Assembly: GCA_046351595.1 (NCBI GenBank)
Contig: JAXLYE010000004.1
Coordinates: 513,219 to 577,218 of the forward strand
DNA length: 64,000 bases
Direction of reading: 5' to 3'
DNA from: Polyangia bacterium
GTDB taxonomy: Bacteria > Myxococcota_A > Polyangia > Palsa-1104 > JAEUJZ01
Part shown: positions 7,303 through 26,435 of the stretch, piece after piece
Numbering within the stretch: position 1 is the first letter of the stretch
How the letters are laid out: each line of letters starts with the position of its first letter
Notes under the pieces: generated by a model
The model's database searches: none
Told to the model about the DNA's origin: nothing
Seen by the model: the letters and a program-made list of their open reading frames with translations, nothing else
Made by a program: the position numbers and the translations under genes

Positions 7303-7608
7303 TCAAGGAATCGCGGTGGCCAGCGTGGCGACTCTGGGAGTCCCGATTCCGGTCGCCAGGTCGTAGCCGGTCCGGGTCGCGCAGCCGCCGTAGCCCATGT
7401 CGCGGATGTCGCGGAAGGCCGAGCGCGTCGCCGTGTGCGTGTACAAGAGCGGGTTGAGGAACCCGACCGCAGGCTTGCCGCTGGCGCGGCGCGCGTGGTT
7501 GATGAGCGTCACCGCGCCCGCGAACACCGGCGTCGACGCCGAGGTGCCGTCGGCGTAGGTCCACTTGCCCAGGTACGTAAGCGGCGATTCAGCCCTGGCT
7601 CCGGTTCC
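7303..7608 (-). pseudogene. C-terminal fragment of a sedolisin (peptidase S53) gene carrying the catalytic-serine motif; no N-terminal part is adjacent.
   Basis: Minus-strand translation from about 7608 reads ESPLTYLGKWTYADGTSASTPVFAGAVTLINH...GFLNPLLY...GYDLATGIGTP, the S53 C-terminus including the GTSxxxP Ser motif. It is preceded by an in-frame stop and an AT-richer degenerate sequence (7540-7780). Confidence 0.6.
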
Positions 7609-7786
7609 CTACACCGCGTGCAAAAGAGGCCGGAACGGAGTCCGTGCGGACACTACGCAAGTAAGGACTGAAGGGACTGGAGGGACTCCCGGGGGCGGCG
7701 CGGCTGCTTTTCTGTCGGCGGAGGTGGTACGATGAGGCCGCGCACTGCGGACGGCGGGGGCGCTCAGGTCTTATTCGGAGTCAGAT

Positions 7787-9058
7787 ATGCCAAGTGACAC
7801 GGAGAATCCCAATCTGACGTTCGCCCGGAACTGGACGACCGGCGGCCCGATCGAGCTCGAGAGCCTCAGCGGCTCGCGCGCGACGATCCTCGCTGAGGCC
7901 GATCGGAACCACGACGGCGTGGTCACCATGCGTGAGGCCCGGGATCGGCTGATCGTGAGCAGCCGCGTGCTCTCGGACCCCGCCGCGCAGACGTTCGAGG
8001 CGGAGCTGGAGCTGTTCCTGCTGGAGCGGACCGGGCACGCGGTCGATCTGACGGGGCCGGGCGGCACGGGCCGGTCCCGCATCCTGTACATCCAGCTCAA
8101 TAACGTGAGGAACCAGAAGCTGCGGGAGGAGCAGGATCTGCTGCGGATCGCGCAGCGGGATCCGGACCGGCCCGTGCTGGACACCCTGAACCTGACCCGG
8201 GAGTTCAACACCAACGGCGACGTCGCGGCTGCGACCGCCGCCTTCCGGGGCGCGCTGTGCCGCTACTTCGACGGGCTGATCGCGCACGGGCAGCGCATGA
8301 GCGGCTTCGTCCTGTCCGGGCACAGCAACGGGACGGCGATGCTGCAGGAGACCGCGGACCACCTGTACTACGCGAACCTGGAGCCGCGCGCGGTGCTGCG
8401 CGAGCTGCGTGCCGGGAGCCCGGCGTATCGGGCGCTCATGGACGGGTGCGAGAAGGTGGCGGCGCTCGCGTGCTTCCAGGGCAGCGCGCTGAACGAGTGG
8501 GCGGAGATCTTCCCGAACGCGGCGCTGGCCGGGACGCGGATGTTCGCACCGCTCAGCAGCTCCCCGGCCTCGGCGGCGCTGTTCGATCAGGCGGCCACTG
8601 CGCACCAGATCCTCGAGGACGCGGCCGGTGACACCGCGTCGGCGCGGCGGGTCGCGGCGAGCGTGCCGTACAGCGCCGCGCTGCGGTCCTCGGAGCCGTC
8701 GCTGCATGTGCCGATCCAGCATGACGAGGTGCGCGCCAAGGCGCGGGCCCAGCTCGCGGCCGCCGAGAGCGAGTACCGGCGCCTCGAAGCCGAGATCCGC
8801 CAGATCCGCAGCAAGGGCGCCGCCGGCTTCTCCCAGAGCCTGCTCGATCGCGCGTACGCGGTCGCGAACACGTACTATCTGGCCCTGACCGATCTCTGGA
8901 TCGCCGAGGGGCGGCCCGGTGGGGAGGGCGGCGCGGAGGCGCACCGGCTGGCGCAGGCGCAGTTCGAGGTCCACGACCTGTTCGCGATCCGCAAGCACCT
9001 GCCGCGGCCGGATGTGCCGAGCGGCGTGGAGCCTACGATCCAGACCTCGTACGCCTAG
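7787..9058 (+). CDS. Hypothetical protein (423 aa) with an EF-hand-like Ca-binding loop (DRNHDGVVTMRE); no signal peptide.
   Basis: Long ORF with plausible codon usage. DxNxDGxVxxxE matches the EF-hand loop consensus. No other recognisable family. Confidence 0.45.
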   Translation: MPSDTENPNLTFARNWTTGGPIELESLSGSRATILAEADRNHDGVVTMREARDRLIVSSRVLSDPAAQTFEAELELFLLERTGHAVDLTGPGGTGRSRILYIQLNNVRNQKLREEQDLLRIAQRDPDRPVLDTLNLTREFNTNGDVAAATAAFRGALCRYFDGLIAHGQRMSGFVLSGHSNGTAMLQETADHLYYANLEPRAVLRELRAGSPAYRALMDGCEKVAALACFQGSALNEWAEIFPNAALAGTRMFAPLSSSPASAALFDQAATAHQILEDAAGDTASARRVAASVPYSAALRSSEPSLHVPIQHDEVRAKARAQLAAAESEYRRLEAEIRQIRSKGAAGFSQSLLDRAYAVANTYYLALTDLWIAEGRPGGEGGAEAHRLAQAQFEVHDLFAIRKHLPRPDVPSGVEPTIQTSYA

Positions 9059-24121: not shown

Positions 24122-24818
24122 GGGCGAGGGCTGACGTGGACGGCCAGGCGGTGAGACCGCTGCACGCCCTGCTCATCGCGATCGCGGCCCATGAGGACGG
24201 AAGCTACACGCTCCACGCCGGCCGCCTGGCCGGGCTGGGAGCGGGCGCCGCGATCGGCGTGTACGGCCCGATCCCGCGCGCTTCCCGCCGCTTGGTTCCG
24301 AAGCCGATGAGCGGGCCCGTCGCGGCGTCCTGATCCTTCTGGCCGCAACGCCCGCGCCGTCCACGGCCCGCCTCAAGACACCGGAGCCGCGCTGGATCTT
24401 GACGGCGCACGCGGGCGGCCGCAAGGCGCCGGTGCGCACCGGGTCGCTTTCGTTTAGGTCAGCCAGCAGCGCAGCAGAGCGGGTTCGTCCGACGGTCCCG
24501 AGGGGATGGGGCATAAGCCCGCGAAAGAATGAACGGATGGCCCTTCGCTTGCTGGTAACTGTGTATCTGCGACAGGCCGGCAGGTAAACCACAGTCCCCT
24601 CAGGCCCAGGAGCGCGCCAATGTCAAACCTCAAACCTCGAAGCGTGGGGGACCTGAGGGCCGACGCGACGCAGGCCAGGCTTGTCCCGTCGGAGACGGTT
24701 TGAAATTTTTCGACAAGTCGAGGCCGGTTCCTGGCGTTCCGCGGAACAGGACCGCTGTGCGTGCGGCCGACCCGCAGACCCCACCTGCCGACTGAGCCCG
24801 CCCATTCCGTACCCAGTC

Positions 24819-26435
24819 TCACACGGGAACTCGCGGTCGCCAGCGGCTGCCAAGCCCGTCGATCAACCTCGCCCCCGTCGCTGAGAAGAGAGTCCTTGAT
24901 GGGTACTTGACCCAATACGGTCCCACCACCGTGCTGACGTCTGCCACCGTTCGCAGGTCGCGGGCGTCGCTGTAGGCGCCGCTCTGCCAGGTCGGCAGCG
25001 CGAACAGGCGCGAGCGCCCGCAGCCCGACAGGCCCCAGCTCCGCTCGGACTCCCAGTAGCCGTCTGGGGTCAGCTCGATGTTGGTGCCGCCGACCGCGGT
25101 CACGTACGGGGCGTCCGAAGGGACGTCGACCTGCGCCGAGTCTCCCGAGGCCGACAGCACCGTGATGCCGAGCGCCGCCGCCATCATCGCGGACTCGTTG
25201 TACGCGCGCGCCACCGGGTACGGCGTCGTGTACTCGGAGTGCGCAAAGGAGTCCGAGAGCACCTGCGCCCGCGCCGCGCCGATGGCCTCGTTGAAGGTGT
25301 AGAGCAGCGAGGTGTCGGAGTTGTCCGGGCCGCCGTAGTAGACGATCTCGGCGCCGGGCGCGATGGCCCCGGCCAGCTCGACGTCCAGCGTCGCCTCCAG
25401 GTCGCGCGTGATGATCGGCTCCATCGTCTGCACGATGATCGGGTCCGCGCGCCGGATCCCGAACGCCTGCCACATCGACTGCAGATCCGAGATCTTGAAC
25501 AGAGTCGCTCCGATGATTCCCAGAGTCAGGCCGGCGCCTTTGTATCCCTTTACATACAGGCTGCTCATCCCGTACGCGCGCGCGATCTGCTGCGGCGTCA
25601 GGTGATCGCCGACGTTGCTCGGCTTGCTCGTGACCACGGGCGCGATGTCGCGCGACAGGGTCCCGGTCGCGGCCTCGGGATCGGGCATGAGCAGGCGCCG
25701 GATCTTGCCGACCAGCGCGTCCGGCACATCGAGCGAGGTGATCGGCGCGTACGCCGCGGCGCGCCAGGTCCCGGACGAGCGCTTGACGAGGTGCAGCCGG
25801 GTCCCGAACGCGGCGTTGAACTGGCGCACGGTGCCGGTGTAGCTCAGCACCAGGCGGTTGCGCGCGGTCCGCCTGACCTCGAAGCCGTGGTCGCTCAGCC
25901 AGCTCTTGACCGCGCTCACCGTGGTCAGCGTCGGCGCGTGGCGATCCATGAACTCGCTGAACGTCATGTACTGCCGGAACTGCGAGGACGAGGGGCTGTA
26001 CATCGCCGCGATGCGATCCTCGAGCTCGGCCTTGTTGCGCAGCTGCAGCACGATCAGCGCGCGGAAGCGCTTGTCCGGATCGACGGTGCCCTGGTCCACT
26101 CCGTGCGGCCAGTACGGCGCCGCCACCTTCGTCTCAGTCCCCGACACCTCTTCCGCCACCTCCAGCGCCGCGGCGTCGCTGTCGACCGCCACTCCGTCCT
26201 CGCGATCGAGCGCGCTGTCGCTCGGCGGCCTGTCCTCCTCGGCAGCGGCGGGCTCCGTCGGCTCGCCGCAGCCCGCGCCATCGGTACACAGCACCGCGCC
26301 CAGCACGCTCCCGAGCAGAATGGCAGAGCGCCGATTCCCCAAACTCCCCAGCTTCCCAGGCGATGACAAAAGACCCATGGAGTCCTCCTCGGCCCATCCC
26401 CCCAAGGCAGCCCACCCGTCTTGCTGCGCCGGCAA
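24819..26435 (-). CDS. Sedolisin (peptidase S53) with pro-domain. The ORF terminates before the catalytic-serine GTSxxxP segment, so it is probably a disrupted or truncated gene.
   Basis: [21 protein letters not shown] (catalytic Glu/Asp region) and SASGDSA (oxyanion Asp) are present. The ORF ends ...[13 protein letters not shown] then 27 unrelated residues and a stop. The Ser motif is missing, and exactly that segment is present at 7303-7608. Confidence 0.65.

Follow-up and report, generated by a model that had tools for sequence, protein, structure and literature searches.

How can a protease gene be cut in two by 17.3 kb of other DNA while both of its halves still look maintained? We address this question for a sedolisin (peptidase family S53) gene of a Polyangia bacterium, which lies in a 64,000-nt stretch of DNA (positions 513,219 to 577,218 of contig JAXLYE010000004.1, assembly GCA_046351595.1) that we call the window and to which coordinates refer unless another contig is named. 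Island-interrupted genes are common, whereas interrupted genes of which both halves are conserved are rare, and the known cases come mostly from spore-formers, cyanobacteria and a few pathogens. A first-pass annotation, made from the sequence alone, had noticed two sedolisin pieces on either side of an accessory segment and had proposed that an island with a caspase/CHAT/NTPase cluster had entered the gene. Here, we show that the pieces are complementary halves of one S53 gene, and we argue, with a probability of about 0.7, that it was interrupted by site-specific integration at the core GTACC(TG), the site acting as attB of a large serine recombinase and the insert being a stepwise array without an integrase.

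One sedolisin gene in two halves

The N half (24903–26435, minus strand) comprises a signal sequence and linker, the pro-domain, and the catalytic domain through the Glu, the Asp and the oxyanion Asp. It opens the minus-strand open reading frame (ORF) 26435–24819, for which NCBI annotates the start at 26306, and which contains a Pro-kumamolisin activation domain (PF09286, E = 2.7e-27, residues 112–245), a partial subtilase match, and the motifs E..LD and SGD, both conserved among orthologues. The first-pass annotation was right that this ORF holds the pro-domain, the Glu/Asp region and SGD and ends before the catalytic Ser; its sedolisin part ends at 24903, and beyond the codon TAC (24905–24903) the frame continues through 28 foreign codons to a stop at 24821–24819. 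The C half (7303–7572, minus strand) has 89 codons and a stop, runs from LGKWTYADGTSAS to TAIP, and holds the catalytic Ser, with a GC content at third codon positions (GC3) of 0.92. The minus-strand piece that ends at 7303 translates to LGKWTYADGTSASTPVFAG...GYDLATGIGTPRVATLATAIP and a stop. It had been described as the missing C terminus, spanning 7608–7303, which is correct except for its beginning, given that the sedolisin sequence resumes at the codon CTG (7572–7570) and not at 7608. On its own the C half has no Pfam match, and no canonical in-frame start codon lies between a conserved TAG, 13 codons before the junction, and the catalytic Ser.

A search with the joined sequence among 5.8 billion proteins returned the source protein (from an NCBI ‘Polyangia bacterium’ metagenome-assembled genome (MAG), on a 1.01-Mb contig) and intact orthologues of 572–586 amino acids (aa). 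Four of the intact orthologues (P0002, P0003, P0005 and P0006) read VKY followed directly by LGKW across the join, exactly as the joined window halves do. At the nucleotide level, intact genes match window positions 26169–24895/24902 by blastn and then directly 7576–7303, in collinear order. The two junction codons, TAC and CTG, abut in a joined ORF of 557 codons. Aligning both fragments to an intact sedolisin, as the first-pass annotation had proposed, places them in one gene, abutting at one codon boundary. Against pro-kumamolisin (1T1E), the joined protein aligns end to end (484 residues, E = 2.9e-29), with the Glu, Asp, oxyanion-Asp and Ser positions matched in the pairs LEATLDVE/GEVELDIE, SASGDS/AAAGDS and GTSAS/GTAAV; chain 1T1E presumably carries a Ser-to-Ala change at the catalytic Ser position, a point that is not part of the alignment output. 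Family S53 is defined by a catalytic triad of Ser, Glu and Asp together with an oxyanion Asp in a subtilisin-like fold (PMC2635056). The joined sequence has the triad and the oxyanion Asp in the 1T1E alignment, but no single continuous ORF carries them all, as the Glu, the Asp and the oxyanion Asp are encoded at 24903–26435 and the Ser at 7303–7572, 17.3 kb away.

Identities to orthologues of the close subfamily are 66–79% for the N half and 67–78% for the C half, with the same ranking of orthologues for both, and each half is about 45% identical to S53 proteins of Sorangium and Polyangium. The identical split is present in four independent assemblies (the source NCBI MAG, JGI 3300035183, ENA ERZ650309 and Logan SRR11567529) and is therefore no assembly artefact. 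The orthologue join, the blastn collinearity and the 1T1E alignment together confirm that the N and C pieces complement each other as the two parts of a single S53 sedolisin gene, on the same strand and with inserted accessory DNA between them, as first suspected.

The GTACC core and an independent break in a relative

The sequence GTACC stands at the block boundaries of the insert (24906–24902, 12925–12921 and 7576–7572, minus strand), whereas the intact genes of the loci L002, L005 and L010 have it once; its chance occurrence at a fixed position is ~9.5e-4. The first copy forms the attL-like N-half junction, and homology to the relatives L009 and L099 (below) and to intact genes stops exactly at 24902. 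The second, GTACC(TG), separates a younger from an older block, and the third, again GTACC(TG), forms the C-half junction and is conserved in two relatives, L009 and L098. The interrupted gene has the same short core at both junctions and the uninterrupted gene a single copy. GTACCTG is also more frequent in the window than expected (9 observed against 2.2), probably through TAC-CTG codon usage, and we did not use this as evidence.

Three relatives of the window show how old the split is. In L009 (ENA ERZ650309; 90–93% nucleotide identity), the N half reaches exactly the equivalent of 24902 and is followed by ~150 nt corresponding to 12925–12773, by the equivalent of 9075–7577 with a gene for a 423-aa protein, and by the C half, giving an insert of ~1.7 kb. 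L001 (JGI 3300035183; ~86% identity) is syntenic with 37760–24887 and shares the break and the ~150-nt segment, which are followed by a patatin-like phospholipase gene and the contig end. L098 (Logan SRR11567529; 88% identity) is collinear with 6538–10839, and its C half is preceded by the non-coding right end of the older insert, then by the 423-aa gene, a SpoIIAA-like ORF and an FG-GAP gene. The ~150-nt segment, which we call J_L (12773–12920, minus strand), is homologous among L009, L001 and the window (12920–12773; Smith-Waterman z 9–17). In L009 and L001 it directly follows the break and in the window it lies behind the second GTACC; the 12-kb block between was therefore added later, at the same core, and this block is not present at the same junction in L009.

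By these alignments the insert is a composite of an older remnant (7577–12920) and a younger 12-kb block (12926–24901), and the older insert predates the divergence of this genome from at least three sampled relatives (L009, L001 and L098). The claim that an island had entered the sedolisin gene consequently needs to be divided: accessory DNA was inserted, but the caspase/CHAT/NTPase cluster did not cause the split, given that L009 and L001 have the same break with other contents. The AT-richer sequence noticed at both junctions is real (GC 0.65 at 7577–7786 and 0.69 at 24122–24901, against 0.71 for the window) and corresponds to the insert's non-coding ends.

J_L, which formed the original left end of the first insert, contains a conserved in-frame tail of 12 codons with TAA and the palindrome GCGGAACAGCGGTTCCGC. 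Between the window (12773–12920) and L009 (1458–1604) it is 72% identical, at a synonymous divergence (dS) of 0.12–0.15 in the flanking genes. It was considered as a decayed sedolisin C terminus and rejected, having no similarity to the C-terminal coding region. The opposite, attR-like end, J_R (7577–7786, minus strand), is the non-coding segment that contains the conserved TAG, and it is orthologous in L009 and L098 with large indels.

An independent break was found by screening the 120 best sedolisin matches for loss of the serine motif. The protein P0024, a distant orthologue encoded at the locus L099 (contig JGI 3300078389), departs from the sedolisin sequence right after ...GPYWVKYL; L099 aligns to window 26150–24902, and to intact genes only up to AAGTACCTG. 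Past the break lies unrelated, AT-richer DNA with no C half within the next 4 kb. An ORF starting ~25 nt past the break begins MRTHRHTDGTKTAVGYVRVSTQEQATDGVSLDAQ... and matches the Resolvase N-terminal domain (E = 4.6e-8) and, after an internal deletion and a frameshift, the Recombinase domain (PF07508, E = 7e-5), both with scores above the Pfam cut-offs. By these matches the ORF is a decayed large serine recombinase gene. In a neighbor-joining tree of the sedolisin N part (436 columns), all 200 bootstraps recover the window clade as monophyletic, and the tree itself has the intact P0002/P0003 as its sister. L099 is nested among the intact P0005, P0006, P0008, P0010 and L010, and in none of the 200 bootstraps does it come out as sister to the window clade. 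The window clade and L099 were therefore broken at one nucleotide by independent events, and the core was re-used by the 12-kb block; together with the recombinase remnant beside the L099 break, this is why we read the site as a serine-integrase attB. In viral contigs, neither attP-like junction strings nor relatives of the L099 recombinase were found.

The integration we propose would have taken place at the GTACC(TG) core within the K-Y-L codons, just upstream of the catalytic-serine segment. The older insert would already have been in place in the common ancestor of this genome and the three relatives, and the 12-kb block would later have entered at the same core, beside the N half, leaving the third GTACC copy. 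We infer that a serine integrase made the window insertions as well, and that the element has since lost its recombinase or is served by one acting in trans.

Several observations weigh against site-specific integration. Of the att-like repeat and the integrase for which the first-pass annotation had suggested searching the boundaries, only the former turned up. No integrase, transposase or recognizable remnant of one lies in 7577–24901 (Pfam, NCBIfam, PADLOC, tblastn and six-frame inspection), so the insert has no integrase gene beside an att junction; the 780-nt left end of the younger block likewise holds no recombinase remnant by tblastn and six-frame reading, and there is no integrase, transposase or remnant of either among the other window ORFs scanned with Pfam, which cover most, not all, of the window. 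The minimal insert in L009 contains only a non-recombinase gene, homologues of which occur elsewhere in unrelated contexts. The block ends do not align significantly without anchoring, the three insert-side bases at the core vary by lineage (TAC, CGG and CAG), and J_L has diverged between the window and L009 beyond the dS-based expectation; it may have been exchanged between lineages or may evolve unusually fast. No syntenic empty site was found. The first-pass annotation had suggested looking for one in related genomes, and intact orthologues do exist, but at ≤75% aa identity and with other neighbors, and the species-representative genomes hold just two of them, both distant. Finally, serine integrases normally recombine attP with attB. 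For the 12-kb block to enter a junction of the attL type is non-canonical and is not explained by this chemistry.

Some similarity does appear when the block arms are anchored at the core (right ends, p 0.003–0.02; left end against L001, p < 0.001), but it is only suggestive. Homology of the right ends of the two blocks was rejected as a separate proposal, with an unanchored Smith-Waterman z below 2. The window contains no Rfam or tRNA match that would point to group I/II introns, other RNAs or tRNA targets.

Selection on the halves and competing explanations

Both halves carry the signature of protein-coding constraint. For the N half, the ratio of nonsynonymous to synonymous change (omega) is 0.28 between the window and L009 (dS 0.123, Fisher p 1e-7) and 0.34 between the window and L001 (dS 0.267, Fisher p 6e-11); differences per codon position are 15/15/43, and the sole indel, of 24 nt, is in frame. 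The tightest constraint is that on the truncated catalytic part, where omega is 0.165 and 0.29 compared with 0.086 in an intact pair. The C half is 94–97% identical across the window, L009 and L098 with zero indels and zero stops, and between the window and L098 the proportions of synonymous and nonsynonymous differences are 0.12 (pS) and 0.03 (pN). The non-coding DNA on both sides of it is 88.5–88.9% identical, with gaps of 24, 46 and 118 nt. For comparison, omega is 0.21–0.38 in neighboring genes and 0.21–0.25 in the 423-aa gene. By these measures both halves are evidently under purifying selection and are not decaying, which argues against a dead scar.

The most economical explanation of this constraint would be that the interruption is reversible, with recombination between the direct GTACC cores still able to restore the 557-codon ORF. 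This would be a case of regulated gene integrity, in which an integrase-less segment that serves as a landing pad for defense or conflict genes is excised precisely by a serine recombinase acting in trans. If true, precise excision would be the reason that purifying selection has continued to act on both halves from a time before the lineages diverged. The host lineage, Myxococcota, has multicellular development, and a functional secreted protease would then be restored in some cells or life-cycle stages. The predicted healed junction reads ...GGGTCAAGTACCTGGGCAAGTGG... and the healed attB ...TATTGGGTCAAGTACCTGGGCAAGTGGACC..., and the predicted circle junctions are ...GAATCGCCGCTTACGTACCCATCAAGGACTC... 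for the whole insert and ...CAGGCTTGGCGTACCCATCAAGG... for the 12-kb block alone. We put excision forward tentatively, both as a property of the cores and as regulated gene integrity.

The interruption could alternatively be a permanent scar, in which the integrase is long lost, the sedolisin is irreversibly dead and the island grows in a neutral locus. The lack of a recombinase in the insert and the scanned ORFs is in keeping with this, as are the decayed state of the recombinase beside the L099 break, the missing start codon of the C half, and the omega of the split copies (0.17–0.34), which is about two to three times that of an intact pair (0.09–0.16). A dead gene should, however, approach an omega of 1 and collect indels and stops over a dS of 0.12–0.27, whereas the values observed lie well under 1 (p 1e-7 to 6e-11), constraint peaks in the truncated catalytic region, and the C half has 0 indels in three lineages next to non-coding flanks with many. 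We consider a scar unlikely.

A fixed split with another kind of maintenance would account for part of the signal. The N-terminal product might be functional alone, as it is a complete ORF with its own start, a short 12-residue tail conserved in L009 and L001, and clear selection on its sequence. Yet this leaves the protein-type constraint on the start-less C half unexplained, and puts the strongest constraint on a truncated catalytic part that lacks the catalytic Ser. The halves might instead be kept fresh by homologous recombination with circulating intact alleles, but no intact allele of >75% aa identity is present among the 5.8 billion proteins, and the informative relatives of >84% identity are all split. 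Either form of a fixed split seems to us a distinctly poor candidate.

It is improbable that the blocks entered as transposons with a 5-bp target-site duplication or by illegitimate, microhomology-mediated recombination rather than by site-specific integration. A 5-bp direct repeat does flank each block, no integrase was found in the window, and the right ends are not significantly similar when unanchored. However, the boundaries of the 17-kb segment have no terminal inverted repeats and no long direct repeats, the block ends likewise lack terminal inverted repeats and transposase domains are missing, so that the hallmarks of a DDE transposon are absent. Moreover, one nucleotide was hit three times (by the old insert, by the 12-kb block and independently in L099), and a serine recombinase remnant abuts the L099 break. 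The last alternative, that the pieces are two paralogues in decay or come from paralogues that recombined, had been suggested by a loose resemblance of about 8 junction codons (GPYWVKY against SPLTYLGKW) and has practically nothing left to recommend it, given that this resemblance reduces to the shared GTACC, that in the intact gene the halves meet at precisely one codon boundary, and that both match one set of orthologues at equal levels of identity and neither is decaying.

Cargo, surroundings and likeness to known systems

The younger block (E_new, 12926–24901, 11,976 bp) was observed in this genome only and has non-coding ends at 24122–24901 (780 nt, left) and 12926–13191 (266 nt, right). 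Between these it encodes a 661-aa protein of no known family (22136–24121, plus strand), an nSTAND1 NTPase fused to WD40 repeats (17233–22191, plus; nSTAND1 E = 6.3e-95), a CHAT-like protein (15525–17246, plus; CHAT E = 6.8e-12, a partial match to positions 107–259 of 289, and the PADLOC chat model), and a caspase-family protein (13192–15519, minus; Peptidase_C14 E = 1.9e-23 and the PADLOC caspase model). The closest homologue of the caspase (80% identity, locus L097) has only that gene in common with the block, and we rejected the idea that the block is a conserved mobile unit elsewhere. The GC and tetranucleotide profile that had been proposed as a check shows the insert to be slightly deviant: the 12-kb part has the lowest GC (0.679) and, in tetranucleotide composition, correlates least with the remainder of the window (r 0.946), and GC3 is 0.83–0.88 in the insert genes compared with 0.90–0.98 in the flanks.

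In the older insert, a 3.7-kb sub-block (9076–12772) is missing from L009, whereas at least 9076–10839 is common to L098. It encodes the SpoIIAA-like ORF (9200–9631, minus), the FG-GAP repeat protein (9868–11241, plus) and a 502-aa protein of no known family (11263–12771, plus) with a DDxxD-like motif, FAVDDGVD. The last two share a frame and are separated by one stop (11239–11241) and 7 codons, and are either a single gene interrupted by a nonsense mutation or two genes that adjoin. At the edge of the sub-block, just downstream of the 423-aa gene, lies a 40-nt low-complexity tract with purine/pyrimidine asymmetry (9100–9140; minus strand TCTTCCCTTTCCATTTCCTTTCCTTTTCCCTTTCCTCTCC).

The 423-aa gene (7787–9058, plus) is the sole gene of the minimal insert in L009. 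Its protein belongs to a rare family, with only 10 homologues (P0121–P0130) among the 5.8 billion proteins and the invariant motifs SGHSNG and ALACFQG. The best fold matches of its AlphaFold2 model (pLDDT 64.6), caspase-1 p20 and CED-3, are non-significant, and the protein may be an undescribed clan-CD-like peptidase. That it is a hidden integrase was considered and rejected: it has no family or PDB sequence match, its homologues stand in unrelated contexts without sedolisin pieces, and its fold is weakly caspase-like.

The first gene past the break in L001 (11886–12623 of that contig) encodes the patatin-like phospholipase (Pfam E = 1e-15; PADLOC phospholipase effector E = 8e-26). By gene content, the cargo of the site is defense- or effector-like in more than one lineage. 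On the chromosomal side, 5 kb from the C half, lies a retron-type reverse transcriptase (433–2160, plus; PADLOC RT_XIII, E = 2.4e-110, and Pfam RVT_1), beside a V4R/XylR_N-domain protein (2165–3163, minus) and a 1361-aa PycC-like nucleotide cyclase/AAA_16 STAND-type ATPase (3121–7206, minus); the split is therefore flanked by defense-island-like DNA on its chromosomal side too. At the other end, the 2.9 kb directly upstream of the sedolisin start (26521–29401) are non-homologous to L001 7681–9772; L001 has LysR and NmrA-like genes at this spot and the window a VWA-domain ORF (27945–29885, minus) and a GC-rich collagen-like repeat ORF. By this comparison the region is a second variable spot adjoining the split gene. 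Farther away, the window has a strong negative GC skew at 53000–59000, to −0.38 at 58–59 kb, in a region that includes an NHL-repeat protein gene (53579–56716, plus).

The younger block probably carries a conflict or defense module of the NLR-like type. Systems of this kind, in which STAND NTPases are combined with caspase and CHAT effectors, are described from multicellular bacteria (Kaur et al. 2021, PMC8195603). In gene content, the nSTAND1 NTPase-WD40 protein with adjacent caspase-family and CHAT-like proteins resembles them; the likeness covers the cargo only and not the split, and the CHAT match is partial. The order of the blocks recalls tandem arrays at one attB, in which successive blocks are separated by the same core and the newest adjoins the chromosomal arm, except that the blocks here lack integration modules, their ends are weakly similar, and attP entry into an attL-like site is atypical for serine integrases. 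Integron cassette arrays likewise grow by the serial addition of variable blocks at a single recombination point, each boundary having a short conserved core. In contrast to integrons, the locus has no IntI tyrosine recombinase, attC hairpins or promoter-array logic, and its blocks are multi-gene with genes in both orientations.

The closest parallel is with intervening elements. Regulated gene integrity is known for skin/sigK (SpoIVCA), SPbeta/spsM (SprA) and the Anabaena fdxN, nifD and hupL elements, in which the split gene is rebuilt when the element is excised, and one criterion for it is that the same position has been hit in independent events (Mageeney et al. 2020, PMC7192596). As in these elements, the cut in the sedolisin gene falls within its conserved catalytic domain and the element brings no copy that would restore it, both junctions have a short core in direct repeat so that precise excision would restore the ORF, one position was hit in independent events with a serine-type recombinase implicated through L099, and selection keeps both halves intact. 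Unlike in these elements, no recombinase was found within the element (in the window, in L009 and in those parts of L001 and L098 that were sampled), insert length ranges between 1.7 and 17.3 kb in close relatives, with highly variable content, and excision is here only proposed, from sequence. No report of an S53 sedolisin as the target of an intervening element was found in the literature searched. The same kind of arrangement apparently exists in a myxobacterial lineage, and it is unusual in its secreted-protease target, in an element without its own recombinase, and in an interruption at which NLR-like immune or cell-death genes have come to accumulate. Should excision take place, Myxococcota would have a new DNA switch of a developmental or phase type, operated in trans by the recombinase; otherwise some other explanation is required for the strong constraint on a gene fragment that lacks a start codon. 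Either way, the locus provides a defined attB core that can be used to find the matching serine integrase.

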